Source: Gemmatimonadota bacterium
GTDB lineage: Bacteria; Gemmatimonadota; Gemmatimonadetes; Gemmatimonadales; GWC2-71-9
DNA: 64,000 bases
Assembly: GCA_003222205.1 (NCBI GenBank)
Contig: QHVC01000044.1
Span: 2,510 to 66,509 of the forward strand
Reading direction: 5' to 3'
Of the stretch, positions 12,857-62,609 are shown piece after piece. Each line of letters opens with the position of its first letter. The stretch's first letter is position 1. The notes beneath the pieces were generated by a model. That model worked only from the letters and a program-made list of their open reading frames with translations. It was not told where the DNA came from and ran no database searches. The position numbers and the translations under genes are program-made.

Positions 12857-14020
12857 CTACGCGTCGCGCAGCACCTCGCCCAGGATTTCCAGGGTCCGGT
12901 CGATAACGCCGTCATCATGGGCCAGCGACACAAAGTTGTACGCCGTCCGCTTGAACAAGAGGCCCCGCCGCGCGCAGCCGACCGCTACCGCCCGGGAAAC
13001 GTCCTCGCTCGCGAACTGCAGGAAGCTCATCGCGGCGACCCCGCCGACCCCGACGACGCGCTCCGCGTGGTCGCGTTGCAGCCGGTGGAGGCCGTGGAAC
13101 AACCGCGTCCCCACCCGCTGCAGGTGCTCGCACACCTGCTCGCGCTCGAACACGGCGAGCGTCGCCTGGGCCGCCGCGAGCGCCACCGCCTCCGTCGCCA
13201 GCGTCGAGGAGATCCAGGTGCGGTGGGCGTGCTCCATCAGTTCGGCCCGACCACCCACCACCGCCAGCGGGAACCCGTTCGCCAGCGCCTTACCCAGCAC
13301 CGCGAGGTCCGGCTGGACCCCCCAGCGCTCGGCGGCGCCGCCGATGGCGATACGGAACGCCGTCTTGATCTCGTCGAAGACGAGCACGGCGCCGGCGCGC
13401 CGCGTCTCCGCCCGCAGCGTTTCGAGCCACTCCCGGCTCGGCTCGCTGACCACCAGCGGTTCGACGACGACCGCCGCCAGCCGGGACCCCGCGTCGCGGA
13501 TCATCCCTCGCGCCAGCGCGGCGTCGTTGAAGGGCAGCTCGGCGAACACGGCGCTCGTCCCCGCGGGTACGCCCTCCGCCCGCCCCTGCGACCAGTCGAG
13601 CCAGCCGTGATAGCCGCAGCCGAACACGAGCTCGCGGCCCGTCGCCACACGCGCCAGCCGCACCGCTGCCGCCACGGCTTCCGCCCCGGTCTTGAGAAAC
13701 CGCACGCGCTCGAGCCACGGAATCCGCCGCGCCAGCGCCTCGGCGAGCTCCGCCTCGAGGACCGGCGGCAACGGGCCCACGACGCCGGCGTCGAGCGCCA
13801 CCTGCGCGGCGCGGTTCACGGCTTCGTGGCCGTACCCCAGCGCCACCGCACCGAGGGCCATGACGTAGTCCAGGTACTCGCGGCCGTCCGCGTCCCAGAC
13901 CCGGCAGCCCCGCGCGCGCGTCATGCGGCGCGGGACGCCCGGCTCATCGCCCGCGCCGAACAGCGCGTCGGGACGCTTACTGCCGGTCGAGGTGAACCCG
14001 GGGATCCGCGAGTCGCTCAC
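12857..14020 (-). CDS. Class-III (PLP) aminotransferase, glutamate-1-semialdehyde aminomutase-like
   Basis: VWDADGREYLDYVMALGAVALGYGH, FLKTGAEAVAAAVRLAR, VFDEIKTAFR and the lysine context AVLGKALANGFPLAVVGG. The start is uncertain: GTG 14020 is chosen, and ORF-track 14086 overlaps the upstream gene by 110 nt. Confidence 0.75.
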   Translation of the reverse strand: MSDSRIPGFTSTGSKRPDALFGAGDEPGVPRRMTRARGCRVWDADGREYLDYVMALGAVALGYGHEAVNRAAQVALDAGVVGPLPPVLEAELAEALARRIPWLERVRFLKTGAEAVAAAVRLARVATGRELVFGCGYHGWLDWSQGRAEGVPAGTSAVFAELPFNDAALARGMIRDAGSRLAAVVVEPLVVSEPSREWLETLRAETRRAGAVLVFDEIKTAFRIAIGGAAERWGVQPDLAVLGKALANGFPLAVVGGRAELMEHAHRTWISSTLATEAVALAAAQATLAVFEREQVCEHLQRVGTRLFHGLHRLQRDHAERVVGVGGVAAMSFLQFASEDVSRAVAVGCARRGLLFKRTAYNFVSLAHDDGVIDRTLEILGEVLRDA

Positions 14021-14726
14021 CGTATTTGCCGATCTCGATGGCCATCGCCCGCAGCAGTTTCGCCTCCCGCTGGTCCAACGGCACACGGTGCACGACCTCG
14101 CGCACGGTGCGCATGATCTGCTCGCGGTCGCGAGTCTTGAAGAACTCGACCACGGCGAGCGCCCGCTCCACGTCCGCGAACAACCGCTCCAGCTCCTCTA
14201 CCGTCGCGGGGGGTGCCGCCCGCCGCGGCGCCTTGAACGGGCGTTCCTCGGCCCCCCCGGCCAGCGCCAGCTCGTAGAGCGTCACCGCCACCGCGTGCCC
14301 CAGGTTCAGGCTCGCGTAGTCGGGCGCCGTGGGAATCGTGACGAGGCGGTGGCAGCGGTCCAGCGCCTCGTTCGAGAGCCCTTTGTCCTCCCGCCCGAAC
14401 AGCAGCGCCACCGCGCCGGTCTCCGCGGCGGCGAGCAGCTCGGCGGCCGCGGCCCGGGGGCGCTGCACGTTGCGCTTGACGCTGCGGCCGCGGGCCGTGA
14501 AGCCGACCACGTGGACGCAGTCCGCGAGGGCGTCCTCCAGGCGCTCGAACACGCGCACCCGCGCCAGCAGGTCGCGCGTCTGGTGCGCGATGCCCTCGAC
14601 CCGATACGCGTCGTACTCCCGCGGCGCGACGAGCCGCAGGTCCTGGAAGCCGAAGTTCTTCATCGCCCGCACCACGTGGGCGATGTTGACCAGATCCTGC
14701 GGTTCATCCAAGACTGTGATGATCAT
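13977..14726 (-). CDS. SpoU/TrmH-family RNA 2'-O-methyltransferase (TrmJ-like)
   Basis: Starts MIITVLDEPQDLVNIAHVVRAMKNFG (ATG 14726). Also LLFGREDKGLSNEAL and IPTAPDYASLNLGHAVAVTLYE, the SPOUT knot motifs. Confidence 0.8.
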   Translation of the reverse strand: MIITVLDEPQDLVNIAHVVRAMKNFGFQDLRLVAPREYDAYRVEGIAHQTRDLLARVRVFERLEDALADCVHVVGFTARGRSVKRNVQRPRAAAAELLAAAETGAVALLFGREDKGLSNEALDRCHRLVTIPTAPDYASLNLGHAVAVTLYELALAGGAEERPFKAPRRAAPPATVEELERLFADVERALAVVEFFKTRDREQIMRTVREVVHRVPLDQREAKLLRAMAIEIGKYGERLADPRVHLDRQ

Positions 14727-14728
14727 AC

Positions 14729-14764
14729 GTCCGACCGTCCGACAGTCCGGCGGCTCATCCGACC
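14729..14764. repeat. Tandem octamer array GTCCGACN (3 units + partial) filling the heparinase/trmJ-like intergenic gap
   Basis: Read directly: gtccgacc gtccgaca gtccggcg gctca tccgacc. It lies between the trmJ-like start (14726) and the heparinase stop (14755-57). Confidence 0.9.
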
Positions 14765-17514
14765 AGCTCCAAGATCCCGAAACGCTCCGCCGCCTGCCGA
14801 TCCCCCTGCAACCACACCCACCCATCTCCGCCGCTCCAGACCAGCTGCCCCGCCCGCCGCTCCCGCCCGGGGAGCATCTCGTTGACGATCAGATCGAACC
14901 CGATCCGGCCCCCGAAATGGGCGCGGAACGGCCCGGGCCACGCGATCGCGACGGTGAGGTGGTAGCCGGTCTCCGTGCGCCGCCACCCGCCCCGCACGCC
15001 GCTGGGGTCCCCGGGCGACTCCCCCGCGCCGCGCGCGCGCACGCGGCCGCCGTCTGCCGGCTCCGGCACCACCAGGTATCCGAACGTAGCCGCGCCGTCC
15101 ACGTCGCGCAGATACAGCTGCACCCCGTCGGCGTGGATGTCGTCGGGCTCGTTGTCGAGTCGCAGCGGCGGCGCATCGCCGGCCCGGAAGCAGACGTCCG
15201 GCTTCGTCACGTCGACCGCGACGTACAGCGCCTCGTCATCCCAGCCGGCGTAGGCGAGCGCCGATAGCTGCGCTGGTCCCACATATGGCTCTTCGGCGCG
15301 CCGGTACTGGTCCTCGGCGTCGAGCCGCAGCGGCTCGGACAGGTCGAAGCCCTCGAGCGTGCCGTCGAGCGCCGGCGGATGCGCCACGCGGTACGCGGCG
15401 CCGGTGGGTGGCCGCGCCGGGTCGATCTCGAGAATCGGTTTGAACGGGGGCTCGCTCTCGACCGGTCCAGCCAGCTGCACCGTCCCGGCCGGCGTCTGGA
15501 CTCGCCAGCTGGTCCCGTCATCGTGATGGCGCTCGACGCCCTTCGCGGTCGTGATCTCGACCGCACCGCCAGCGACCGTCATGCCATGCACTGCGGTCTC
15601 GCCCGTCGTCGGCTCGAGCACGGCCACCAGCCGCGCGTTGCGCCCGCGCACGCGCAGCAGGTAAAACGTCGCCTGGCTCCCGCTGCCCGGGACGCCCGGC
15701 CCCTCGGCGCGGAGCAGCTCGGCCGCGGAGCCGAGATGCAGCGTCAACCGCGCGCCGGCCGCCGCGTGCTCGATCACGATGGGCACCGCGTCCCTCCCCT
15801 CGGGGACGAAGCGCTCCACGCGTGAAACGAACTCGTCCGCGAGCTCGCCAGGCTCCCACCTCCCCGGCAAGGTCACATCCCCACGTCCCGCCAGGTGGTA
15901 GGGGAGCTCGAGCAGGCGCTCCTCGCCGCCCGTCAGCTCGATCACATCAACGAGATACGCCGGCCCGGAGACGACGGCGCGGTTGAGCGGTCCCCATCGC
16001 CCCCGGACCCAGGCCCAGTCTCCCCCCTCCGGCGCGTCGAAGGCTTCACAGACGGCGTCGCTCATGGGCTGAGACTCGCCGCCCAAGCGCGGCGCATTGT
16101 GGGAGAGTGTGGACCGATACCAGAACAAGTCGCGGGAAACGTACGAGCCGGTGCCGGGATCGGGCAGCCAGTGGACGCCGTCCGCATGGAGCGTGAGGTG
16201 GAGCCGGTCGGGGTGGCCGTGGCCGCCGCCGTAGGGCCCGCACTCGAGGCTTGCGTAGCGGGCGCCCGAGCGCAGGATCGCGAGTCCCTGACTCGGGAGG
16301 AGCACGCTCTCCGGGCGCCACGGCTCGGCGTCGGGGAGGGCGGGAGGCATCTCGAGGAGTGACCACCACGAGAGCGAGATGCGGGATGGGGGATGGGGGA
16401 TGGGGGCGATCGGCGCATCGTGAAGATAGGACTCGAACAACTCGAGTTTGGTGGCTGGTGCCTGATACAGAGCCTGGAGCCAACCCGACACCTCCCGCGT
16501 CCCCCATCCCGCATCCCCCATCCCGAGTCTTCCCAACCCCACCTCCCACGTCTCCAGATACATCGGCTGCGCGAGCGAAATGCCGAAACGCGAGTCCTTC
16601 CGCGCCGGAAACGTCAGATCGGGGAGGGCGCTGCGCGCCGGCGCGAGCAGCGCCAGCGTGATGCGCTCCCGCAGCTGCTCGTCGGCGAAGCAGTCGAGTC
16701 CCGCGAGCGCCGCCCACCCCGCACCGGTGAGCAGGCCGCGCAGAGCGAAGAGGTGGTAGTTCTCGCCCTCGTACCACAAGCCGTCGGCCCGGAAGCCGCG
16801 CAGGTGCTGGACCAGGCCCGTCGCGTCCTCGATGGCGCGCCGCGCCAGTCCTTCGTCCTCGAACCACACGGCGATGGCGGCGAGGGCGGCGTTGTTCCAG
16901 GTCTGACGGTTGGAGAAGCCCTCGTCGAAGTCGCCGATCAGCGTGGCCGCCTCGTCGGCGACGATGTTGACGCCGCGTTCCGTCGCTTCGTCCAGCGCTC
17001 CCGCCGCCCGCAACAGCCAGGCGGCGCTCACGTAATTCAGCACCCAGAGCGACTCAAGGTAAGTCGAAAAGAACAGCCGGCTCGGGCCGAGCACGTTGTC
17101 CGCGTTGGGATACCGGAAGTAGCGCGCGGCATAGGCGGAGAGGATGTCGCGCGCGCGCGCGCCCGCCGCCGGGGCGCCGCCCAGGGCTGCGAGCGCGGCA
17201 AGGTGGGCCGCCCGCTCGGCCAGCCACAGGTGTTGGTACTTGGCCCAGGCGCGGTCGTGACGGATACCGCGAGCCACCTCGCCGCACCGTGGGCAACGGT
17301 GCGCGTCCGGGCTCCAGGGGTCAAACACGAGCGCCGTCCCATCCTTCGGGCACACGCCCCCGTCCATCGAGAGCAGCGCCTTATGCTCGGGCACGGGCGG
17401 CAGCCGCGCCAGCAGCGGAGCCGCGCGCTCCGTGAGGTGCGCGAGGAGGCGTTGCAAGTCCGGCGCCGCCGCAATTTCCAGGCGGCGCTCCGCCAGCCGC
17501 TCCGCCGTCACCAC
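14755..17514 (-). CDS. Heparinase II/III-like polysaccharide lyase family protein with C-terminal carbohydrate-binding-like domain
   Basis: 919 aa. N-terminal alginate-lyase-like helical region, then LECGPYGGGHGHPDRLHLTLHADGVHWLPDPGTGSY (Hepar_II_III pattern). The C-terminus DGTLEGFDLSEPLRL...AYAGWDDEALYVAVDV resembles CBM9/DOMON-type modules. The CDS contains the in-frame repeat element 16378-16524. Confidence 0.75.
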   Translation of the reverse strand: MVTAERLAERRLEIAAAPDLQRLLAHLTERAAPLLARLPPVPEHKALLSMDGGVCPKDGTALVFDPWSPDAHRCPRCGEVARGIRHDRAWAKYQHLWLAERAAHLAALAALGGAPAAGARARDILSAYAARYFRYPNADNVLGPSRLFFSTYLESLWVLNYVSAAWLLRAAGALDEATERGVNIVADEAATLIGDFDEGFSNRQTWNNAALAAIAVWFEDEGLARRAIEDATGLVQHLRGFRADGLWYEGENYHLFALRGLLTGAGWAALAGLDCFADEQLRERITLALLAPARSALPDLTFPARKDSRFGISLAQPMYLETWEVGLGRLGMGDAGWGTREVSGWLQALYQAPATKLELFESYLHDAPIAPIPHPPSRISLSWWSLLEMPPALPDAEPWRPESVLLPSQGLAILRSGARYASLECGPYGGGHGHPDRLHLTLHADGVHWLPDPGTGSYVSRDLFWYRSTLSHNAPRLGGESQPMSDAVCEAFDAPEGGDWAWVRGRWGPLNRAVVSGPAYLVDVIELTGGEERLLELPYHLAGRGDVTLPGRWEPGELADEFVSRVERFVPEGRDAVPIVIEHAAAGARLTLHLGSAAELLRAEGPGVPGSGSQATFYLLRVRGRNARLVAVLEPTTGETAVHGMTVAGGAVEITTAKGVERHHDDGTSWRVQTPAGTVQLAGPVESEPPFKPILEIDPARPPTGAAYRVAHPPALDGTLEGFDLSEPLRLDAEDQYRRAEEPYVGPAQLSALAYAGWDDEALYVAVDVTKPDVCFRAGDAPPLRLDNEPDDIHADGVQLYLRDVDGAATFGYLVVPEPADGGRVRARGAGESPGDPSGVRGGWRRTETGYHLTVAIAWPGPFRAHFGGRIGFDLIVNEMLPGRERRAGQLVWSGGDGWVWLQGDRQAAERFGILELVG
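16378..16524. repeat. Inverted pair of GATG(G/C)GG heptamer arrays flanking a 95-nt spacer, in frame inside the heparinase-like CDS
   Basis: Left arm 16378-16405: gatgcgg gatgggg gatgggg gatgggg. Right arm 16501-16524: c ccccatc ccgcatc ccccatc cc. The total of 147 nt equals exactly 49 codons of the minus-strand CDS. Confidence 0.9.
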
Positions 17515-18521
17515 GCGCGCACCCCCTCGCGCGCCCAGGCCATCGGCAGCACCGTAGCCCCGGCGGCGCGGGCCGCCGCCACCGCGGGCCGCGGGTCGTC
17601 GCCCGTGAGGAAAAACATCGTCCCCCCCGCGCCGGCACCGGCTGCCTTCCCGCCCAGCACCCCGGCCCCGGCCATCGCCGCCTCGAGGCGCGCCATCTCC
17701 TCGGTGCGCATCTCGGGATCGAGCTGCTGTTGCCGCTCCCAGTTCTCGCTGAGCAGGGCGCCGACGCGCGCGAAGTCCGCGGCACGGAGCGCTTCAGCCA
17801 TGCCCTCGGCGAGGTCCTTCATAGCGCGCAGGGCGCCGGTGACGCCGCGATCGCCCCGCTCGTACGCCGCCATCACCCGCGCGATCGTGTCGCCGGAGAC
17901 GCGAGAGTGTCCCGTGTAGCCCAGCACGGTCCTCCGCTCCAACGCGGCCGCGAACGCCGCATCGAGCGTGACCGGTTCCACGCCCACGTCGGGATCGCGG
18001 AACGTCAGGCGGTTGACGCCTCCCAGCGCCGCGGCAAACTGGTCCTGTTTGCCCCCGGGAATCCCGGCCTCATGCGTCTCGAGGTGCCAGCCGTGCTCGG
18101 CGGCCTCCCGCGCCTCGAGCCGCTCCTGGCGCGCCGCCGCCAGCACGGCGATGAGCGCGACGTCGAGCGCCCCCGACGTCCCGAGCCCGGAGCCGGGCGG
18201 CGCGTCCGCGCGCGTGGTGAGCGTGAAGCGGCCGGTGACCGGAAACATTCGCAGGGCCGCCTTATGGAGGTTCAACCGGCCGTCGAGCACCAGTCCGCCC
18301 GAGTCGGCGCACTCGAGCTGTTGCCCCAGGTCCTCGGCCACGAGGCGGATCAACGTGCCGCCGAGTGTGAGCTCCGCATGGGCGCGCAGGCCGATGGTCG
18401 CGTTGACGACCACCCCGCCCTCTCGCGACGAGAACGGCGGCACGTCCGTCCAGCCGCCGGCGAGGTCGAGGCGCACCGGCGCCTCGGCGCGGTACGTCGT
18501 CGGCAGCTCGCGACGTCTCAC
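17508..18521 (-). CDS. GHMP-family sugar kinase
   Basis: APVRLDLAGGWTD and the GHMP motif PPGSGLGTSGALDVALIAVL. GTG at 18521 forms a GTGA overlap with the upstream stop. The ORF-track extension to 19415 lies inside the binding-protein gene. Confidence 0.75.
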   Translation of the reverse strand: MRRRELPTTYRAEAPVRLDLAGGWTDVPPFSSREGGVVVNATIGLRAHAELTLGGTLIRLVAEDLGQQLECADSGGLVLDGRLNLHKAALRMFPVTGRFTLTTRADAPPGSGLGTSGALDVALIAVLAAARQERLEAREAAEHGWHLETHEAGIPGGKQDQFAAALGGVNRLTFRDPDVGVEPVTLDAAFAAALERRTVLGYTGHSRVSGDTIARVMAAYERGDRGVTGALRAMKDLAEGMAEALRAADFARVGALLSENWERQQQLDPEMRTEEMARLEAAMAGAGVLGGKAAGAGAGGTMFFLTGDDPRPAVAAARAAGATVLPMAWAREGVRAW

Positions 18522-19960
18522 GGCGCGATCCACCAGCGGCTCAGCGTCCCGAGCTCGCCCCGCAGGTCCATCGTCACGCCTTGCACGCGCCGGTTCATAC
18601 CGTTCACGCCGCGTGCGTGATACAGCCACGCCACCGGCAGGCGCTCCGCGAACAGCCGCTGCGCGGCAGTCGGGTCGCGCGGCACGGGAATGCCGGTCAG
18701 GTCGCCCATCGGTTGCAGGTAGCCGAGCCCGGGGTCGCCGGGGAGGCTCATCACCGCCGCCTGGAAGTCGTGGCGCGGCCCGTACACACGGTCGTTGAAC
18801 GCCGACAGCTCGAGCAGGCGGATCGAGACGTCGAAACCGACGGCCGCGAGCCGCGCCTGGAGCATCTGTTCCAGCGCGCCCTCGCCGCTCCCCACGCTGA
18901 GCATCTCGAAACGCGGCCGGCGGCCCGCGAGCAGGGCGCGCGAAGAGTCGGGCGCGGTGGGTAACCGGGGGACGGAGAGATACTGCGGCAGGAGCGGGGG
19001 CACGGGACCATCCGCGATCGACGCGAACCCGAACGCATAGCCGTCGACGATCTCCCGGCGGTCGATCGCCAGCGCGGCGGCAAGACGCACCTTGGGGTCG
19101 TCGAACGGCGTGCGCCGCGTGTTGAACACCAGACCGTACGGGAGGATCATGGGGTAGTCGAGCACCGCCAGGTCCGGGTCGCGGCGGACGTAGGCCGTGT
19201 GCGCGGCGGTGATGCCGGCGAAGTCCAACTCCCCCGCGACCAGCGCCGCGAGCTTGGCCGTGGGCTCGTCCACCACGACGACGATGAACCGCTGCAGCCG
19301 TGGCGGCCCGCCCAGCGCCGCGGGAAAATCCGGGTTCGCGACGAACACCCAGCGGCGATGCGGCTCGTGGGTGACGAAGCGGAACGGTCCGTTCCCAATG
19401 GGACGCGCGTTCCACGCCGCCTCGCGCAGGCGGGCGTGCGGGACAGAGTCGAGCAGGTGCGCCGGGAGAATCGCCAGATCCGTGAGCACGTCGGGGAAGC
19501 CGCGCTGCGCCTCGCCGAACCGGAGCACGACCGTGGACTCGTCGGGCGCGCGCACGGCGGCGATCGGCGCGACGTCATTCCAGCGAGGGTATCCCGTCAC
19601 GGAGTCCCGGGCCGCATCGAGCGTCCACGCGACGTCCCGCGCGGTCGTAAGAGCGCCGTCGTGCCACCGGACGCCGCCGTGCAAGTGCAGGGTCAGCTCG
19701 CGCCGATCCGGCGACCACTGCCACGCTCGGGCGAGGTAGGGACGCGGCGTCATGGTGGAGTCGTAGCGGGCCAGCGTGGTGAGGAGCGCGAACTTCTGCA
19801 CCTGCCGGGCCAGCGGATGCTGGCCGACCAGTGGGTTGATGCTCTGGAGATCGGCGCCGGACGCGAACAGCACGGTCGCGCCGCGACGGGCGGCGCCGGC
19901 GGCGCCGCACCCCCACAGCCCCGCGAGCGCGAGCAGCGTCCCGGCCGTCCGTCGTCGCAC
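18518..19960 (-). CDS. ABC transporter substrate-binding protein, family 5 (peptide/oligosaccharide/nickel type), lipoprotein
   Basis: Lipobox LLALAGLWGCG. Also RWHDGALTTARDVAWTLD, GNGPFRFV and VVVVDEPTAKLAALVAGELDFAGI, typical of DppA/OppA-like SBPs. GTG start. Confidence 0.85.
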   Translation of the reverse strand: MRRRTAGTLLALAGLWGCGAAGAARRGATVLFASGADLQSINPLVGQHPLARQVQKFALLTTLARYDSTMTPRPYLARAWQWSPDRRELTLHLHGGVRWHDGALTTARDVAWTLDAARDSVTGYPRWNDVAPIAAVRAPDESTVVLRFGEAQRGFPDVLTDLAILPAHLLDSVPHARLREAAWNARPIGNGPFRFVTHEPHRRWVFVANPDFPAALGGPPRLQRFIVVVVDEPTAKLAALVAGELDFAGITAAHTAYVRRDPDLAVLDYPMILPYGLVFNTRRTPFDDPKVRLAAALAIDRREIVDGYAFGFASIADGPVPPLLPQYLSVPRLPTAPDSSRALLAGRRPRFEMLSVGSGEGALEQMLQARLAAVGFDVSIRLLELSAFNDRVYGPRHDFQAAVMSLPGDPGLGYLQPMGDLTGIPVPRDPTAAQRLFAERLPVAWLYHARGVNGMNRRVQGVTMDLRGELGTLSRWWIAP

Positions 19961-20983: not shown

Positions 20984-21822
20984 TGCGACTCCGCGATCCC
21001 CGCGCCCTGTTCGGGCTCACCGTCCTGGCCGCCGTGGCGATCGCCGCCATCGCCGCGCCGGTCGTCACCGCCGGGAATCCCAACGCGCAGCGCGATATCG
21101 TCGCCACACGGTTCCTCCCCCCGCTCACCGCCGATCTCCATGGGACGTTCCACCCACTGGGGACCGACCGCTTCGGGCGCGACGTGTGGACCCGGCTCGT
21201 CTACGGGGCTCGCATCTCGCTCGGCGTCGGGCTGCTCGCCGTGGTGATCTCGGTGGCGATCGGCACCGCCGTGGGCGCGGCGGCGGGCTACCTGCGCGGC
21301 TGGCCCGCCATGGGACTGCTCGGCTTCACCGATTTCGCCCTCGCCCTCCCCCGGCTCGTGCTGCTGCTGCTGCTCGCCGCCCTGTGGCAGCCGAGCGCCG
21401 CGCTGGTGGTCGTGGTCCTGGGCCTCACGGGGTGGATGCCGATCGCGCGCTTGGTGCACGGCGAGGTCCGGGGCCTGGCGGTCCGGCCGTTCGTCGAAGG
21501 GGCGCGGGCGCTCGGCGCCAGGCGCGCCCGCGTGCTGTGGCGGCACATCCTCCCCAATGCCCTGACGCCCGTCATCGTGGCGGCGGCGCTGGGTGTCGGC
21601 AACGCGATCTTGCTCGAAGCCAGCTTGTCCTACCTGGGACTGGGGGTCCAGCCCCCCACGGCTTCGTGGGGAAGCATGATCGCTTCAGGGCGCGACACCC
21701 TGGTCAACGCTCCGTGGGTCGTCACGGCGCCCGGCCTCGCGCTGGTGCTCGTCGTGGTCGCGTGCACGCTCCTGGGCGACGCCCTGCGCGATGCGTTGGA
21801 CCCGGGGGCCGCGAAGCGTTAG
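20983..21822 (+). CDS. ABC transporter permease (DppC/OppC-like)
   Basis: Starts MRLRDPRALFGLTVL with a TGATG overlap on the upstream stop. Also GTDRFGRDVWTRLVYGARISL and the EAA-like loop ARALGARRARVLWRHILPNA. Confidence 0.85.
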   Translation: MRLRDPRALFGLTVLAAVAIAAIAAPVVTAGNPNAQRDIVATRFLPPLTADLHGTFHPLGTDRFGRDVWTRLVYGARISLGVGLLAVVISVAIGTAVGAAAGYLRGWPAMGLLGFTDFALALPRLVLLLLLAALWQPSAALVVVVLGLTGWMPIARLVHGEVRGLAVRPFVEGARALGARRARVLWRHILPNALTPVIVAAALGVGNAILLEASLSYLGLGVQPPTASWGSMIASGRDTLVNAPWVVTAPGLALVLVVVACTLLGDALRDALDPGAAKR

Positions 21823-22502
21823 CTGTCCGCCAGCCGACGCAGTGCCGACGCTTCGATTTCGTGGCCGCCCTCGAACACCTGCGTTCGGAACGGAATCGCC
21901 CGCTCCGTGAGCCGCCGCTCGATCCCGGCGAGCACCTTCGGCGTGATGTACGCGTCCTGCTTCCCGGTCACGATCGTGGTGCGCAGTCGTTTGAATCGTT
22001 GCTCCGCGGCGACGAGGTCGAGATCCGGCGGCAGCTCACCGCCCCACAGCACCAGGTCGTCGAGGCGCGCCGTCCCCAGCGCCGCCCAGCGGCTCACCGT
22101 GGCCGCGCCCTGCGAGAACCCCAGCGCCCGGATGCGGACCTCAGCCGCAGCGCCGCGAACGACCTCCGCATGGACCGCGTCCAGGTATTTCACGTAGTCC
22201 GCGATCTCGTTGAGCCGGTCCTCACGCGTCATCCACGTCGCGCCGACCGGCTGTTCGCGATGCTGCCCATCGCCCACGTAGAATCGCGACAGTCCTTCAG
22301 GCGCCACCACGACCCGCGGGCCGTCCGCAATCGGCTCGAACCGCTTGAGGAACCGCGCGGCCAGCTGCCCGTATCCGTGGCACACGAACCAGATCTCCGC
22401 CGCCTGTGAGGGATCTCCCAGGACGAAGTAGCGTGCGCTTCGCGCAACGCTGATATGTCGCTCGCTTGGTTCATTCCGCATTCCGCACTCCGCATTCCGC
22501 AT
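21819..22502 (-). CDS. Alpha/beta-hydrolase (phospholipase/carboxylesterase-type esterase)
   Basis: WFVCHGYGQ, the nucleophile elbow LGFSQGA, and C-terminal FEGGHEI. ATG 22502 overlaps the GH38 stop (TAATG). The first 11 codons are encoded by the heptamer array, and a second in-frame ATG lies at 22481. Confidence 0.7.
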   Translation of the reverse strand: MRNAECGMRNEPSERHISVARSARYFVLGDPSQAAEIWFVCHGYGQLAARFLKRFEPIADGPRVVVAPEGLSRFYVGDGQHREQPVGATWMTREDRLNEIADYVKYLDAVHAEVVRGAAAEVRIRALGFSQGAATVSRWAALGTARLDDLVLWGGELPPDLDLVAAEQRFKRLRTTIVTGKQDAYITPKVLAGIERRLTERAIPFRTQVFEGGHEIEASALRRLADS

Positions 22503-22506
22503 TACG
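22472..22506. repeat. Tandem heptamer array CATTCCG x5 (= CGGAATG on the coding strand) at the GH38/esterase junction
   Basis: cattccg cattccg cactccg cattccg cattacg. The last unit contains the GH38 stop and the esterase ATG (TAATG). Confidence 0.9.
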
Positions 22507-25129
22507 TGATCTGGATAGTGACGATCTCGTACGGCTTCGCCACGAACCGCAGGGTGCGGCCGCGGTGCTCGAGGACGAGCGCCTGGGACTCCCGCTCGTC
22601 GGCGCGCACGCGGTGCGCCGTCCGGACCCCTTCAGTGAAGCGCCACGCCCCGGCCGTTTCCCGGTCCGTCGCGTTGTAGCAGCGCAGCACGAACCCCGAG
22701 CCGTTCTGCGCCGGCTTGACCGCGGAGAGAATGAGCCCCGTCCCCTCGAGGACGATCTCCCCGCCCAGGATCGCCAGTGGCCCGGCGTCCCGCAGCCAGC
22801 GCCCGCGCACCGGAAGAAATGCGTCCTCCCAGTGCTCGGTGATCCGGTCGCCGCGCTCCAGGTCCTCCGCCGACACCGGCACGATGGCCAGCTCGATCCG
22901 CTCCGGTCCGAGGCACTGGGCGCCCGGCGTCGCCGTCGGCCAGCCGGCGTGCCCCCGGCGCGCCGGCAGATCGCCGCGGGAGAGCTGGCCCACGGCGCGG
23001 AGCAGCGTCACGAGCAGATCCCCCCCGGGCGTCCACTCGTACTCGAAGAACCCCGGAGCCAGGATCGCGAGGCCGCGCTTCCCCTCGGCCGCGGCGACGA
23101 AGCGGTGCGCCGGGGCCGTGCGCACGGGAGTCTCCAGCGGAAACTCCGCGGGATCCGCCGTCACGGGCAGCCGCGGCTCGAGCCCGAAGGCCGCTCCCGC
23201 CAGGGCGGGCACGCCGGATAACGCCGTGGGCACGCGTGCGCGCAGGCGGTGATCAGTCGCACCGTTGTCGAGATGCAGGATGCAGCGAATGATAGGGCTG
23301 TCGGCGTGCAGGACCACCACGAGCCGAGCGGCGTACTGCCGGCCCTGGGTCCAACGCGCCTCCAGGGCGGCGACCAACGGCCCCGCCGCGAGCCGCCGGA
23401 CGGCGATCGGCCCCGTGCTCCGCCGGAGGCGGTCGTGCACGGGCGGGCAGTAGGTGTAGGTGTCGCCGGCATCGCCGCCGTCCTCCAAGCGCAGCACGTC
23501 GAAGAATCGCTCGCCGCTGCGGCGATCGTGCAGCGCCAGCGCCCCCGTCGCTTCGAACGTCACCTCGACGAGCCGGTTTGTGAGCGTGCGGCCCCGAGCG
23601 TCGACCCGATCCGCATCCGACATCCGCACCGGCCCAACCACTGTGAGGGCCGCGCAGCCCAGACCGGGCACGGGGGGCGCGCGAAACGCCACGCGCACCC
23701 CGTCCACCTCGTCCTGGTCGGGATAGTGGCGGGTCGCGTCGCGACGCTCGAGCGCCTGGCGTCGGTCCAGCACCTGCACCGGAATCGGCCGCCCGTCCAA
23801 GCCCGCGAGCGCGAACGCGCGGTACCCCGGCCCCACCCTCGGCTGCCGGCCCGCCGGGGCGCCTACGACCACATCGCGACGGAAGAACTCGGCGTCGGCG
23901 ATCACCACGCCGCCCCGCGAGCGCGCCGCGGGGTTCCACAGCACCAGCGCGGGCGCTGCGTCCTCCGCGCGCTCGCGGGCCGCGTCGGGATCGTGACCCG
24001 CCAGCTCGTCGAGGGATGCCCGCGCGACTTCCTGGGCATAGCTCTCCACCGCGGCGAGCCGGATCTCCGTTTCGGCTGCCACCGTGTCGCTCACGCAGCC
24101 GCCGATCGTGTCGTGGAACTGGCAGGCGAGCAGGGTACGCCACGCGGTCTCGAGCAGCGGCCGGCGGTCCGCGCCGCCGCGGCGCCGGGCCAGTGCGGCG
24201 AGCGGCTCGGCGTGACGCTCCAGCCACAGCTCCGCGCGGGCGTGGCGGCGTTTCTGCGGCGCGCGCGTCCCGTGCACGCCCTGCAGCGTCCAGGCGTAGC
24301 GATACGACCAGCGCAGCTCTCCCGCCAGCGGCGCGGCCTTCGCGGTGTCGGCCGCGGCGAGCGAGAGGAATTCATCGAGCCGGGAGATGCGCACGGCGTA
24401 GTCCGGCTCCAGCGCCGCGAGCAGGTCGCGCAGGCGCGGCAGCTCCGGGTGCGCCGCGTGGTGATCCGCGCCGACGAACACCGCGACGTGTTTCGACGCC
24501 GCCCGCGCGACCAGCGCTTCGCGTACCGGCGGCCATGCCACGGCCAGCCGCTCCGCATCCGCCGGGAGCGCCGCGCCGATCTCGTAGCCCTCGGGGGACA
24601 GGTGCCACACGATCGCTTCCTGGCCGTCGCGCCCGCGCCAGCGGTACAGGTCGCGCTCCTGTCCCGGCTCCCCGCCGAGCCCGCGCCACAGCACGCCGGC
24701 GCGGATGCCGAATTCCCGCGCCAGGCTCGGCCAGACCGCCGGGTGCCCGAACGCATCGGGGGAGTACAGCGCTTCGCTGCGCCCGCCCCAGTGGTCGGCA
24801 TCGGCCGCACCGAGGAGCAGGTTGCGCACGAGCGACTCCCCGGACGGGATCTGCTCGTCGGCCAGAACGTACCAGGGTCCCACCTGCAGGCGGTTGGTTT
24901 TCACCAGGGCTTTGACGTCGGCCTCGCGGTCGGGCCGGGCGCGCACATAGTCCTCGAGCAGGATCGTCTGGCCGTCGAGGAGGAAGCTGCGGTAGGCGGG
25001 GTCGGCGGTGAGGCGCGTGACGAGGTCGTCCAGCGCCGGCACGAGGCGCGCGTGGAGCGCCGCCCGCGGGAGATACCACTCGCGGTCCCAGTGGGTGTGG
25101 GCGATCAGGTGAAAGACGAGGCTGCTCAT
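22502..25129 (-). CDS. Glycoside hydrolase family 38 (alpha-mannosidase-like)
   Basis: N-terminus MSSLVFHLIAHTHWDREWYLP, then YVLADEQIPSGESLVRNLL and SPDAFGHPAVWPSL: the GH38 catalytic-domain pattern. 875 aa. Confidence 0.85.
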   Translation of the reverse strand: MSSLVFHLIAHTHWDREWYLPRAALHARLVPALDDLVTRLTADPAYRSFLLDGQTILLEDYVRARPDREADVKALVKTNRLQVGPWYVLADEQIPSGESLVRNLLLGAADADHWGGRSEALYSPDAFGHPAVWPSLAREFGIRAGVLWRGLGGEPGQERDLYRWRGRDGQEAIVWHLSPEGYEIGAALPADAERLAVAWPPVREALVARAASKHVAVFVGADHHAAHPELPRLRDLLAALEPDYAVRISRLDEFLSLAAADTAKAAPLAGELRWSYRYAWTLQGVHGTRAPQKRRHARAELWLERHAEPLAALARRRGGADRRPLLETAWRTLLACQFHDTIGGCVSDTVAAETEIRLAAVESYAQEVARASLDELAGHDPDAARERAEDAAPALVLWNPAARSRGGVVIADAEFFRRDVVVGAPAGRQPRVGPGYRAFALAGLDGRPIPVQVLDRRQALERRDATRHYPDQDEVDGVRVAFRAPPVPGLGCAALTVVGPVRMSDADRVDARGRTLTNRLVEVTFEATGALALHDRRSGERFFDVLRLEDGGDAGDTYTYCPPVHDRLRRSTGPIAVRRLAAGPLVAALEARWTQGRQYAARLVVVLHADSPIIRCILHLDNGATDHRLRARVPTALSGVPALAGAAFGLEPRLPVTADPAEFPLETPVRTAPAHRFVAAAEGKRGLAILAPGFFEYEWTPGGDLLVTLLRAVGQLSRGDLPARRGHAGWPTATPGAQCLGPERIELAIVPVSAEDLERGDRITEHWEDAFLPVRGRWLRDAGPLAILGGEIVLEGTGLILSAVKPAQNGSGFVLRCYNATDRETAGAWRFTEGVRTAHRVRADERESQALVLEHRGRTLRFVAKPYEIVTIQIT

Positions 25130-25182: not shown

Positions 25183-27492
25183 ATGCGCAAATACCTCTGG
25201 CTGCTCATTCCGGCGACGCTCGCGGCGGCGGTCGCGGCACGGCGCCTCGTGCCCGGCGCACTCGCGGGGGGCGACGTGCTCCTCCCCTCAGGCTGGCGCA
25301 TCCATCCCGCCGGCCGACAAGTCCCCGTCGGCACGCTGCCGCTGAACCTCGTCGTGCTCGGTGATGGCTCGCTCGCCGTCACCAACAACGGCTACGCCGC
25401 GAACGGTCTCATGGGAATCGCCCCCGAGTCCGCGGCCGTGACCTGGCTGGTGCCGCTGCGCGCGGCGTGGCTGGGATTGGCCCGCGCGGGCGATACGCTG
25501 TGGGCGAGCGGCGGGGTGACGAGCCGGGTGTACCGTTTCGTGCCCAACGGGTCGGCGTGGACCGCCGACTCGATCGTGCTCGCCGACTCGATGACGCGGC
25601 TGTTCGTGGGCGGCCTTGCCGTCGTGCCCGGCCGTGGACTCATCGCGGCCGTCGGCAACCTCAACGACTCGGTCTACCTCATCGACGCCGCGACGCTCAG
25701 GCGCCGAGGCGCGTTCGCCATCGGGCACAGGCCGTACACCGTCGTCGCCGACTCGAGCCACCTGTACGTGAGCAACTGGGGCGACTCCACGGTGTCGATC
25801 ATCAATCTGTCCGACAGTCCGGCGGTCCGACCGTCCGACCATTTTGTGGGCCCCCATCCCTCGGCGCTGGCCCTGCACGGCCGCGAGCTGTTCGTCGCGC
25901 TCGCGGGCGCGAACGGCGTGGCGCGTGTGGATCTGGCGACGGGCCGCGTGCTGGAACAGCTCACCGTCGCCCTAGCGCCGCGCGCTCCCGTGGGCAGCGA
26001 CCCCAACGCGCTCGCCCTCGCCCCCGACGGCCGCACGCTGTACGTGGCGATGGCCGGCAACAACGCCGTCGCGGTGGTGCGGCTTTCCGCCCGCGCGATG
26101 CGCGTCGTGGGCCTCATTCCCGCCGGCTGGTATCCCACCGCTGTGGCGGTCGCCGCCGACGGCCGCACGCTCTACGTCGCCAACGGCAAGGGACAGGGCT
26201 CCGCGGCGAACGCCGACGGCAAGTACATCGGCAACCTCATCACCGGCTCAGTGTCGATCATCCCTGTGCCGGACTCGGCCGCGTTGGCCAAGTTCACTCG
26301 GCAGGTGTACGCGCTGAGCCCTTACTCGAACCCGCAGATCCGTCCGACGGTCCGACAGTCCGTCCGTCCGACTATTCGGCATGTCGTTTACGTCATCCGT
26401 GAGAACCGCACCTACGACCAGGTATTCGGCGACGTGCCGACGGGGAACGGCGATCCGGCGCTCGCGATCTTCAACGACAGCGTCACGCCCAACGCCCACG
26501 CCCTCGCCCGGCGCTGGGTGCTGTGCGACAACTTCTATGTGGACGGCGAGGTCAGCGCCGACGGCCACCAGTGGTCCACGCGTGCATTCGCGGGCGACTA
26601 CAACGAGAAGACGTGGCCGGCGATCTACGGCGGCCGCCGCAACGACAACCTCGAGGACGGCGAGGACGTGAAGAACCCGCGCGACGCGTATCTCTGGGAC
26701 GCGGCGCGGCGCAAGGGGCTGTGGGTCGTCAACTTCGGCGAGTTCACCGATGCGGATTCGAGCCACCACTACGACTCGAAGATCAGCGGGCTCAAAGGCA
26801 TTACCGCGGCCAACTACCCGGGCTGGGACCTGGCGATCGCGGACACCGTGCGCGCGCGCCTGTTCGCCGACTCGGTGGACAGCTGGGACCGGCAGGGCCG
26901 CTTCCCCGACCTCGTGGTCCTGTACCTGCCGCGCGACCACACCGAGGGCCGCCGCGGCGGCGCCCTCACGCCGCGCGCGATGGTGGCCGACAACGATCTC
27001 GCCCTGGGCCGCGTGGTCGCGCGCCTGTCCCGCTCCCCGGCGTGGCGGTCCCTCGCGCTCTTCGCCCTCGAAGACGACGCCCAGAACGGCCCCGACCACG
27101 TCGACGCGCACCGCTCGATCCTCGTCGTCGCGTCGCCATGGGCGCGCCGCGGCGCGGTGGACAGCACCTTCTACACCACCAGCTCCGTGGTGCGCACGAT
27201 CGGCCTGCTCCTCGGGATCGGTCCCCTCAGCCAGTACGATGCCGGCGCTGCGCCGCTCTGGAACGCCTTCGACTCGCGGCCGGACTCGGCACCGTTCCAT
27301 GCCCCGCCCGCACGGTGGCGGCTGGACGAGCGCAACCCGGTCGCCTTCCGTTCCCGCGTCCTCGACCGCGACCTCGCAGGCCCCGACCGCGCAGACGAAG
27401 CAACGCTGAACGCCGAGATCTGGACGAGTGTGCGCCCGCGCGAGCGCGTGCCCACGCCGCGCCGCGCCTTGGGCGTCGCCGCCGGGAACTAG
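25183..27492 (+). CDS. Secreted fusion protein: YVTN/YncE-like beta-propeller + phosphoesterase (phospholipase C / acid phosphatase family) domain
   Basis: Signal MRKYLWLLIPATLAAAVA. Propeller repeats (LYVSNWGDSTVSII, LYVAMAGNNAVAVV, LYVANGKGQG) are followed by VVYVIRENRTYDQVFGD and VSADGHQWS phosphoesterase motifs. Contains two in-frame GTCCGACN arrays. Confidence 0.8.
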   Translation: MRKYLWLLIPATLAAAVAARRLVPGALAGGDVLLPSGWRIHPAGRQVPVGTLPLNLVVLGDGSLAVTNNGYAANGLMGIAPESAAVTWLVPLRAAWLGLARAGDTLWASGGVTSRVYRFVPNGSAWTADSIVLADSMTRLFVGGLAVVPGRGLIAAVGNLNDSVYLIDAATLRRRGAFAIGHRPYTVVADSSHLYVSNWGDSTVSIINLSDSPAVRPSDHFVGPHPSALALHGRELFVALAGANGVARVDLATGRVLEQLTVALAPRAPVGSDPNALALAPDGRTLYVAMAGNNAVAVVRLSARAMRVVGLIPAGWYPTAVAVAADGRTLYVANGKGQGSAANADGKYIGNLITGSVSIIPVPDSAALAKFTRQVYALSPYSNPQIRPTVRQSVRPTIRHVVYVIRENRTYDQVFGDVPTGNGDPALAIFNDSVTPNAHALARRWVLCDNFYVDGEVSADGHQWSTRAFAGDYNEKTWPAIYGGRRNDNLEDGEDVKNPRDAYLWDAARRKGLWVVNFGEFTDADSSHHYDSKISGLKGITAANYPGWDLAIADTVRARLFADSVDSWDRQGRFPDLVVLYLPRDHTEGRRGGALTPRAMVADNDLALGRVVARLSRSPAWRSLALFALEDDAQNGPDHVDAHRSILVVASPWARRGAVDSTFYTTSSVVRTIGLLLGIGPLSQYDAGAAPLWNAFDSRPDSAPFHAPPARWRLDERNPVAFRSRVLDRDLAGPDRADEATLNAEIWTSVRPRERVPTPRRALGVAAGN
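25809..25840 (+). repeat. In-frame octamer array GTCCGACN x4 in the propeller domain
   Basis: gtccgaca gtccggcg gtccgacc gtccgacc, encoding ...LSDSPAVRPSDH... Confidence 0.9.
26342..26373 (+). repeat. In-frame octamer array GTCCGACN x4 in the propeller/phosphoesterase linker
   Basis: gtccgacg gtccgaca gtccgtcc gtccgact, encoding ...RPTVRQSVRPT... immediately before the VVYVIRENRTYD domain start. Confidence 0.9.
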
Positions 27493-61811: not shown

Positions 61812-61953
61812 CGTGAGGGGACGAACAAAACTGAAGGCGTGGAGGGACGACGTCAACCAAACACCGTGGAGGGAAATCGTGGAGGGAAGACGTTTACGGG
61901 TTCCCTCTACGTCGTCTCTCTACGTCGTCCCTCCACGTCGTTCCTCAACGTTT
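61812..61953. repeat. Long inverted tandem array of the 13-mer family (core CGTGGAGGGA / TCCCTCCACG) between the TolB-amidohydrolase and SURF1 genes
   Basis: Left arm units at 61812 (cgtgagggga), 61838, 61865 and 61878 (cgtggaggga) on a 13-nt register. Right arm: tccctctacgtcg, tctctctacgtcg, tccctccacgtcg, ttcctcaacgttt (61902-61953). The right arm covers the SURF1 stop and its last 10 codons. Confidence 0.9.
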
Positions 61954-62609
61954 CTCTTTAGTATCGCTCCCATGCCGACGAGCACGATGCCCGCGAAGGC
62001 GAACCATTGGATCGCGTACGAGAGGTGCGGGCCGTCGCTGAGCTCAGGGGCGGGCCAAGAGACCAAGTCGGACGGCCGGACCGTCGGACTGCCTGACGGT
62101 AGAGCTTGAATCACAAACGCAGCGACGCGATATGGGAGCGAGTCCCGGAGTCGTGTAGGGTCGATGTCGCCCCTGCCCCGCGGCGCCCGGAAGGCGAGAC
62201 CGGTGACGACGCCCGAGTCGCCCTCGCGGAGCGCCGTGAGGTCCACGTGCAGCGCGTCGGCGGACGGCGCCCAGCCGCGGTCCACGAACACGGCGGCGTC
62301 CCGCGAGACCTTGAGCGGCGTGAGCAGGGCGACCCCGGGGACGCCTTCGTAGGTGCGCGCGCCCCACACCCGCTCGTGCGCGTAGTCCCAGGCGCCGGTG
62401 GCAGTGACGCGGCGGTCCCGCACGGAATCGACCGGCAGCGCCGCGGCAGTGACGGCGACCGCCGGGAGCGCTCGGCGCGCGCGCACGTCCGCGTTGCGCG
62501 CCCGGCGCTGGTGCAGGCGGTTCAGCTGCCACACGCCGGCACTCACGAACAGCGCCGCGACGACGAGCGCGATGGCGGCCCCGAGCCAGTCTTTGGAGGT
62601 GAGCTTCAC
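61920..62609 (-). CDS. surf1: SURF1-family cytochrome oxidase assembly protein
   Basis: N-terminal TM + GVWQLNRLHQRR, and C-terminal HLSYAIQWFAFAG + TM. GTG start. Contains an in-frame GTCCGACN array. The last 10 codons are encoded by the 13-mer array. Confidence 0.8.
   Translation of the reverse strand: MKLTSKDWLGAAIALVVAALFVSAGVWQLNRLHQRRARNADVRARRALPAVAVTAAALPVDSVRDRRVTATGAWDYAHERVWGARTYEGVPGVALLTPLKVSRDAAVFVDRGWAPSADALHVDLTALREGDSGVVTGLAFRAPRGRGDIDPTRLRDSLPYRVAAFVIQALPSGSPTVRPSDLVSWPAPELSDGPHLSYAIQWFAFAGIVLVGMGAILKRNVEERRGGTT
62066..62089 (-). repeat. In-frame octamer array GTCCGACN x3 in SURF1
   Basis: Minus strand: gtccgacg gtccggcc gtccgact (24 nt = 8 codons), encoding ...SPTVRPSD... 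Confidence 0.9.

Follow-up and report, generated by a model that had tools for sequence, protein, structure and literature searches.

In the 64-kb stretch of Gemmatimonadota DNA analysed here (called the window, in its whole length), two convergent G-rich heptamer microsatellites lie in frame inside a gene for a heparinase II/III-like protein. We hold with modest confidence that this array pair is kept by slippage, by template switching between its two arms and by short-patch recombination, and that it is tolerated in two variable stretches of the protein at a domain boundary. The host gene (14755..17514, minus strand) appears in the list of open reading frames (ORFs) as a 2.76-kb coding sequence (CDS) for 919 amino acids (aa). 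It belongs to a Gemmatimonadetes metagenome-assembled genome, and its protein is 99% identical to the entry 'DMD71_07550 [Gemmatimonadetes bacterium]'. A preliminary description had called the gene heparinase-like, and its protein has a Pfam match to PF07940 (Hepar_II_III_C domain, E=1.8e-12), accompanied by weak matches to PF05426 (alginate-lyase-like N-terminal domain) and PF06452 (CBM9-like C-terminus). A family profile compared with PL17 alginate lyases gave matches at residues 106-266 and 411-636 and left residues 267-410, with both variable stretches, uncovered. Judged from the Pfam and PL17 profile matches, the array pair is situated 1 kb inside the CDS, between the toroid and the beta-sandwich domains. 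A single-sequence search for a homolog of the 919-aa protein with solved structure found none, and an AlphaFold2 model based on 25 homologs had a mean predicted local distance difference test (pLDDT) score of 59.7, with values below 50 over residues 297-403, and was unusable for placing the variable stretches.

Read along the window, the left arm (16378-16405) is GATGCGG GATGGGG GATGGGG GATGGGG and the right arm (16501-16524) is CCCCCATCCCGCATCCCCCATCCC, of which the three heptamers written out before occupy 16502-16522. An inverted-repeat search extends the arms to 16377-16406 and 16501-16530, that is 30 nucleotides (nt) each, complementary at 27 of 30 positions (90%) and 94 nt apart; alternative pairing registers of the same arms are offset by 7 nt. 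Tandem Repeats Finder (TRF) reports a period of 7 on both sides, with 4.1 copies and 95% matches at 16378-16406, and 3.6 copies and 88% matches at 16500-16524. All six matches of the window to the double-heptamer pattern GATGSGGGATGSGG fall on the array pair; the number expected from shuffles is 0.28, and none of 100 shuffles reaches six. Thus, re-reading and repeat searches bear out the arm sequences and the non-random inverted arrangement of heptamers first described at 16378-16524. The same holds for the claim that the 147 nt are in frame, as codon 331 opens at 16524 and codon 379 closes at 16378 (49 codons, translated GMGDAGWG...PIAPIPHPPSRI), and for the lower G+C content of the interior (0.60-0.61 vs 0.72-0.77 in the flanks). 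Both arms also fit the canonical G-quadruplex (G4) rule, G3+N1-7 x4, on opposite strands as had been stated, the 5' arm on the minus and the 3' arm on the plus strand (regular expression; G4Hunter window maxima of 2.3 and 2.7), and GGGAUGGGGGAUGCGGGAUGGGGG is a candidate G4-forming sequence of the pair.

In gene orientation, on the minus strand, the 5' arm (16501..16530, codons 329-338, RLGMGDAGWG) consists of G-rich sense heptamers, AGACTC GGGATGG GGGATGC GGGATGG GGG. It is followed by an interior of 94 nt (16407..16500, about codons 339-370, TREVSGWLQALYQAPATKLELFESYLHDAPIA), which is ancestral coding sequence, and by the 3' arm (16377..16406, codons 370-380, APIPHPPSRIS) with C-rich sense heptamers, CCCCCAT x3 CCCGCATCT. 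The repeat unit in the window is GGGGATG/GGGATGC. Loop 1 (with the 5' arm), the conserved core and loop 2 (with the 3' arm) together form a hypervariable, exchangeable 'cassette' (16363..16548, minus strand, codons 323-384, from WEVGL to LSWW).

For a comparative analysis, 80 orthologous loci were fetched from species-representative genomes, including an outgroup clade at 57-59% identity, and 67 ortholog regions could be split into loop 1, core and loop 2. The best 120 homologs of the protein are 890-936 aa long, 24 sampled homologs (66-99% identity) align through the region with gaps of 1-2 residues at most, and orthologs at 57-84% identity are of equal length and can be aligned across the 147 nt. 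The interior codes for a conserved SWLxALY...ELFESYLHDAP segment, in which W345, L346, Y350, E358, F360, L364 and H365 are invariant among 25 homologs. It is among the better conserved stretches in that part of the protein; only the arms vary. In the outgroup clade the core is present, the flanking stretches are short and there are no repeats. Since the orthologs are of the same length and the core is conserved in an outgroup without arrays, the 147-nt unit is not an insertion.

The arms show a very different picture. Twenty-four of the 67 orthologs have a strong inverted repeat, almost all of them with tandem heptamers in both arms, and 43 have no significant inverted repeat. The array architecture stays at the same two sites across the Gemmatimonadales clade (60-84% protein identity) and is found nowhere else in the gene. 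The unit itself differs by lineage. At least eight types were found, among them GGGGATG (window), CGGGATG, CGGGAAA, CGGGACA, GGGGAGC, GGGGAGT, GGGAGCA, GGGGAGA and GTGCGCG, most of which fit GGGA+NNN. The G4 motif is present in both arms in only three of the 24 paired orthologs and in neither arm in ten. It is therefore not the maintained feature, and G4 formation was rejected as the conserved property of the element.

When loop 1 was scored against the reverse complement of loop 2 in the 67 regions, the mean was 11.45 within genomes vs 6.89 between mismatched genomes, and none of 20000 permutations reached 11.45. Covariation was assessed in a gapless, codon-anchored alignment of 19 sequences against 500 shuffles. 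Paired stem cells amounted to 68.2% (61.5 ± 0.9 in shuffles), 49 stem cells were changed on both sides (20.5 in shuffles), and the covariation score was 0.213 vs 0.108, a value that none of the 500 shuffles attained and that fell to 0.067-0.124 when the partner was slid by 1-3 columns. The covariation is concentrated on the three variable positions of each heptamer. The hairpin between the arms that had been proposed is thus possible, and its pairing covaries across orthologs. The two arms consequently encode antisense-matched peptides, such as TGNGKG opposite PFPVSR or GMRD opposite IPHP, which constraint at the protein level does not predict. When positions are counted from the codon anchors, 14 of 17 orthologs of the same length pair best at a register of 0 mod 7, among them every one with a strong inverted repeat; the phase of the array is therefore inherited while the unit sequence turns over. 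Complementarity between the arms ranges among orthologs from perfect down to background. Furthermore, one-sided arrays exist in three loci (L029, L032 and L055), and a fourth (L005) has two arrays with non-complementary units. Such one-sided arrays, non-complementary arrays and graded complementarity fit a cycle of birth, homogenisation and decay.

One pair of orthologs gives a direct view of how the arms may be kept alike. L205 (protein P0149) and L009, whose proteins are 85% identical, have in common an insert of 25 nt, GCGACCGTCAGGGAGTCCTTTAGGG, which is not made of repeats and sits within the 3' array. Its exact reverse complement is found at the mirror position of the 5' array in L009 only and not in L205, so that its inverted repeat reaches 46 nt and its 5' loop is eight codons longer. 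The 5' copy is closer to the L205 version than to the 3' arm of L009 itself, where two bases have since changed. L009 thus bears the mark of one copying step in reverse complement, be it by template switching or by repair on a hairpin template, and the 25-nt mirror copy points to copying from arm to arm. Template switching has been shown to create and maintain hairpins in other settings (PMC8794818).

The lengths of loop 1 cluster at 10-12, 17 and 24-26 residues, that is in steps of seven codons or three heptamers, and loop 1 of the window is longer by just such a step than that of short-loop orthologs. As three units equal 21 nt or seven codons, this is the only slippage step that preserves the frame. 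No frameshifted copies were seen among the 80 species representatives, where 13 of the 14 loci that failed the regular expression or anchors were intact by eye and L044 was without a match. Phase variation, in which 7-nt slippage would turn the gene off, was rejected for the lack of frameshifted copies. GGGAAAC is a classic X XXY YYZ slippery heptamer; a -1 frameshift site was nevertheless rejected as a general explanation, since other lineages carry non-slippery units.

Within single clusters of proteins at 90% identity, the cassette occurs as discrete alleles. We surveyed up to 15 members from each of ten such clusters. In the cluster of the window there are an allele A (GMGDAGWG...IPHPPSRI) and an allele B (GTRDPGNGTRE...VDRVPFPVSRC). 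In a four-way DNA comparison, two strains of one cluster were about 100% identical over the 2.7-kb gene vs 53-70% inside about 180 nt, and for the cluster of the window the respective values were about 97% elsewhere vs 58-75% inside the cassette. The B alleles of two different clusters are 88-92% identical in the cassette vs about 80-85% in the flanks. Two or more discrete alleles were found in five out of ten backbone clusters, with classes common to several clusters, and one pair of alleles differs in the 3' arm alone. The core of L011 is nearer to that of the window than to that of its sister L012 when compared with the backbone phylogeny, which is suggestive of exchange on a basis of only 63 nt. 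Since near-identical strains carry different cassette alleles, a stretch of less than 250 nt appears to have been swapped by recombination; the sequences would fit replacement of alleles in short patches, or else a polymorphism of long standing whose flanks have been homogenised. No silent donor cassette was found within the 64-kb window. In one assembly (L081:1-60, contig MNHG01000061.1, behind P0121) the end of the contig falls within the cassette core, and P0128 begins just past the cassette; the gene calls at P0121 and P0128 start at spurious internal codons. Both observations would fit alleles that co-exist, or an assembly graph interrupted by the repeats.

Heptamer arrays are not restricted to this gene. 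Arrays of at least three copies, counted over the window and 525 kb of Gemmatimonadales loci, are essentially confined to period 7: the cassette accounts for 25 and other sites for 14, of which two are cassettes of later loci and 12 are further arrays. In the same set, periods 5, 6 and 8-14 account for 0-5 arrays each, and period 4 for 19. The 64 kb of the source genome contain, besides the array pair, one (CATTCCG)x4.6 array at 22472-22503. This array, of the GCGGAAT type in reverse complement, is located between the convergent ORFs 21186..22409(+) and 22502..25129(-), and has no inverted partner within 300 nt.

A second inverted-heptamer hairpin is located in the intergenic gap directly after the stop codon of the heparinase-like gene in about ten related loci (among them L003:4251-4380, L007:4271-4390, L011:4286-4385, L013:4303-4403, L037:4321-4441, L039:4264-4367, L060:4300-4421 and L205:3388-3495). 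Its arms are 24-52 nt long and up to 100% complementary, with loops of 26-60 nt. The units are of a GCGGAAY-type and drift together in both arms between lineages (GCGGAAC, GCGGAAT, GCGGAGT, GCGGATT, GCGAAGT). The lineage of the window is without this hairpin; there the next gene abuts the heparinase-like stop codon.

A scan of metagenomes with the pattern (GGGAWRS)x3 GGG gave more than 120 stretches as a lower bound, and 80 loci were listed. These hold 86 arrays, only one of them in a heparinase-like gene. Among the listed arrays, 30 have an inverted partner downstream and one upstream (controls 0/50), so that the pairs are overwhelmingly ordered G-array then C-array, as in the heparinase-like gene. 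Paired arrays of the same general kind, for which a search had been suggested, do therefore exist in related genomes and in metagenomes. Some A+T-rich metagenome contigs (G+C 0.18-0.23) contain (GGGGATG)n(GGGGATT)n, at a contig end in L101, L150, L158 and L164 and internally in L124. These arrays look like eukaryotic telomere-type repeats and are false positives for pattern scans.

From these observations the following scheme can be proposed. The array pair would occupy two indel-tolerant stretches which flank a conserved segment of about 30 residues between two catalytic-fold domains, and where the protein would tolerate Gly-rich and Pro-rich filler. Within an arm, replication slippage would expand, contract and homogenise the 7-nt units, in line with the observed quantum of seven codons. 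Between the arms, intramolecular template switching or hairpin-templated repair would copy the reverse complement, presumably in the manner of the one event seen in L009, and would thereby keep the arms complementary despite the drift of the unit between lineages. Between lineages, finally, the whole cassette of about 180 nt would be swapped by short-patch homologous recombination, as the pattern of alleles shows. The hairpin and the two G4 motifs would then be by-products of the array architecture, and we judge that a mutational 'self-renewing' process, rather than selection on the mRNA, maintains them.

Several points weigh against this scheme. Slippage and template switching are seen indirectly, and L009 alone carries much of the mechanistic weight in what was deduced from the sequences. 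The two stretches are putative surface loops, in a part of the AlphaFold2 model that is poor (pLDDT below 50, residues 297-403). If the process were purely neutral, one might expect the arrays to be lost more often than their persistence at these two sites indicates. The 30:1 polarity of G-array then C-array among the listed arrays is not predicted by simple template switching and hints at constraint or function. Furthermore, the precisely bounded replacement of the cassette in five independent clusters suggests selection on alleles or a break-prone structure.

It is possible, if less probable, that the hairpin is a selected cis-acting structure, with a stem of about 25-30 bp and a loop of about 95 nt at the domain boundary, heptamer arrays then being the simplest means of making and remaking an extended stem. 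It might act as a translation pause for co-translational folding, as an RNase III or stability element, or at the level of DNA. The site between the toroid and the beta-sandwich domains would suit such a role. Pairing that covaries while the sequence changes is what one would expect under selection, and so are the joint expansion of both arms in L009 and the retention of the architecture across the clade. The intergenic hairpins just 3' of the stop codon are in a position typical of terminators and stabilisers. The sense RNA of the window folds into a long stem with a minimum free energy of -93.7 kcal/mol (z = -3.5 vs 200 shuffles). However, the gene is intact in the 43 orthologs without a significant inverted repeat and in the outgroup clade, which has none, and in L029, L055 and L005 the arrays have no partner or a non-complementary one. 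Mismatches between the arms in the sense RNA comprise 8 G-U vs 20 A-C, and this lack of a G-U preference is a weak argument against a stem kept in the mRNA by purifying selection. A search of Rfam gave no family above threshold and only sub-threshold noise of microRNA hairpins, and ribosomes would unwind an intragenic stem.

The points that trouble the scheme of slippage, template switching and recombination can also be read in another, unlikely way: the convergent arrays may be autonomous, self-renewing structural DNA, built by a replication or repair process or by a factor that measures 7 nt. Such a process, to which we likewise assign little probability, would keep the arms complementary, impose the polarity of G-array then C-array and delimit a cassette exchanged with preference between strains and species. 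Three features sustain this improbable reading, namely the persistence at two sites, the 30:1 polarity among the listed arrays and the recurrent, sharply bounded swaps. If true, it would mean a hairpin- or G4-bounded 'micro-cassette' recombination system, residing in frame in essential-looking genes, for which we found no bacterial description in the literature.

Even less probable, in our opinion, is that the arrays are recombination-promoting boundaries, where a G4 or hairpin causes breaks or stalls, with the intervening segment as a swappable diversification cassette, loosely comparable to G4-initiated pilin gene conversion. The replacement is indeed sharp, shorter than 250 nt and coextensive with arms and core, in strains that are 97-100% identical elsewhere. 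Allele classes recur in five of ten clusters and are shared between clusters, the window has G4 motifs on opposite strands, and some assemblies (L081) break inside the cassette. Yet the G4 motif is not conserved, no silent donor was found in the 64-kb window, and the protein, by eye without a signal peptide, gives no obvious reason to diversify. The conserved core speaks against functional diversification, and any old polymorphism in a recombining population gives a divergence peak with homogenised flanks.

An origin of the 147 nt as a miniature inverted-repeat transposable element (MITE), as had been suggested, or as an element similar to the Rickettsia palindromic element (RPE), inserted in frame, is highly improbable. 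Terminal inverted repeats and an in-frame length would speak for it. However, no empty site lacking the element was found among the 25 + 67 + 130 homologs aligned, no direct repeat adjoins the arms as a target-site duplication would (sequence and direct-repeat families), and no second copy was detected in the 64-kb window by pattern search, blastn or tblastn, nor in 205 loci. Together with the ortholog alignments and the ancestral core, this ruled out a MITE or RPE-like insertion; as far as can be read from the alignments, only the arms are added or overwritten sequence. The preliminary description had named conservation of the protein in homologs without the repeats as an observation that would speak against its proposal, and this is what we found for the interior, while the arms are variable. 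Complementarity of Gly (GGN) and Pro (CCN) loops by chance or codon usage has equally little probability: such codons are complementary by nature, but the 7-nt period is not a multiple of three, there are antisense codon matches of M/H, K/F and N/V, and the permutation and covariation results exclude it.

Just as improbable is an intragenic inverton, in which the inverted repeats would be recombinase sites and the 147 nt would flip to recode the protein: inverted repeats do surround a short in-frame segment and the inverted reading is open in the window in a matching frame (plus-strand ORF 16251..16661), but 17 of 24 orthologs have an open flipped frame vs an antisense background of about 82% in this G+C-rich gene, all of the about 250 homologous proteins inspected have the forward core, which is conserved as protein, and the arm sequences are lineage-specific, unlike recombinase sites. 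An invertible segment was therefore rejected: the frequency of open flipped frames does not exceed the background, and the proteins inspected include none in flipped form.

The position inside a gene has a particular advantage. Anchored by the codons, the arrays of dozens of species can be aligned to the single base, as intergenic copies cannot, and the alignment makes visible the inherited phase, the turnover of the unit, the joint change of the arms, one reverse-complement copy and the exchangeable allele. The array pair is a natural example of apparent compensatory covariation that probably stems from mutation mechanics and not from selection on RNA structure, and so calls for caution in covariation-based RNA discovery in G+C-rich genomes. 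It also illustrates how a microsatellite with a non-triplet unit can endure within a gene, provided that its changes come in steps of three units.

Some further features were observed in the window and in related loci. The heparinase-like gene is part of a conserved gene order with genes for a GHMP-kinase-like protein, a SpoU-type methyltransferase and a class-III aminotransferase (GHMP-kinase-like, heparinase-like, SpoU-type methyltransferase, class-III aminotransferase; window 17508-19415 (-) and 13977-14825 (-), loci L082-L084), and start and stop codons overlap in this row. The heparinase-like protein, which by eye has no signal peptide, carries an N-terminal CPxDG...CPRCG zinc-ribbon-like motif. 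At 61833-61950 there is an apparently intergenic hairpin with arms of tandem 13-mers, CGTGGAGGGAMGACGT / ACGTCGTCCCTCCACG, including one 16-nt pair with 100% complementarity (TRF period 13 x3.8). Octamer arrays, (GTCCGACN)x4, occur in direct orientation and 533 nt apart at 25805-25843 and 26338-26376, inside the ORF 25183..27492(+), which has internal protein repeats of about 132-150 nt. Similar octamers are located at 14728-14749, just 3' of the heparinase-like stop codon, and, in opposite orientation, at 62067-62099. In L053:334-487, inverted arrays of (GCTATGG)x4 and (AGCCCAC/AGCTCAC)x6 (29 nt, 90% complementary, about 60-73 nt apart) are found close to where the GHMP-kinase gene starts, some 1 kb upstream of the heparinase-like gene.

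Among known systems, RPE is a multi-copy in-frame insertion, which is inserted whole and absent from orthologs. The likeness is that palindromic DNA is tolerated in frame inside a conserved protein; in the heparinase-like gene, however, the centre is ancestral and only the arms have been added or overwritten. Repetitive extragenic palindromic (REP) sequences and REPINs (PMC3116915) are short hairpin repeats often located just 3' of genes, and the intergenic heptamer hairpins are REP-like in position. A REPIN, though, is a fixed family sequence with a RAYT transposase, whereas the heptamer loci share only the architecture of a 7-nt array. In intragenic invertons and in pilE of Neisseria, inverted repeats or a G4 border a variable intragenic segment that is swapped in a manner resembling gene conversion; the latter, G4-initiated pilE/pilS conversion, is cited within PMC4692102. 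The case described here differs in that none of the about 250 proteins has a flipped orientation, the 64-kb window holds no donor and the G4 is not conserved.

Comparable copying from arm to arm takes place in quasipalindrome correction in E. coli. In template-switch hairpins, one arm is rewritten as the reverse complement of the other within a single event of replication, giving perfect stems and apparent 'compensatory' changes in one step (Monttinen & Loytynoja 2022, PMC8794818; Loytynoja & Goldman 2017, PMC5453318). The 25-nt copy in L009 is the expected signature of such an event. In contrast, template-switch hairpins were described for rRNA, other non-coding RNA and genome-wide mutation clusters and not for intragenic paired microsatellites, to which the enzymology is extended here by presumption.

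Closest to the array pair are the heptanucleotide repeats which, as STRR sequences or as GGGAATC, have been known for decades; the GGGGA(C/T)T repeats of Nostoc are the cyanobacterial STRR sequences. Elhai and co-workers reportedly described, in 2008, small dispersed repeats nested in cyanobacterial heptamer arrays. To our knowledge, neither origin nor function of the heptanucleotide repeats has been established. Rehm et al. 2015 report repeats of GGGAATC for Xanthomonas and of GGGGA(C/T)T for Nostoc, both with a G-tract in the unit, a preference for about four units and G4 formation in vitro (PMC4692102). According to the same article, 89-93% of the Xanthomonas arrays are intergenic and 7-11% intragenic, with under-representation on coding strands, and each genome has 70-75 convergent array pairs with the potential for a stem-loop; at orthologous sites, closely related species differ in unit and length, and a function is unassigned (PMC4692102).

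The pair in the heparinase-like gene resembles this class in having a tandem 7-nt unit with a G3-4 tract in two or more units (4.1 and 3.6 copies in the window), in the two nearby convergent arrays capable of a stem-loop, with arms 90% complementary in the window, in the variation of the unit between relatives and in the capability for G4 formation, which in the window is judged by sequence motif. The order in the window, G-array 5' and C-array 3', is that of 30 of the 31 paired arrays among the metagenome matches listed. The main departure is that the window pair is intragenic, in frame and split around a conserved 94-nt core, although the intergenic location of the class is a tendency and not a strict criterion. 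Furthermore, it belongs to another phylum, Gemmatimonadota, and its unit is not fixed, with at least eight types at the same two sites of the heparinase-like gene. Arm-arm covariation, a copying event and cassette alleles are documented for this gene and were not met in the accessible part of PMC4692102. By analogy, the element is a convergent G-rich heptamer microsatellite pair and may be classed as an intragenic variant of the Xanthomonas/Nostoc arrays. Heptamer array pairs have so far been described mostly between genes and in other bacteria.

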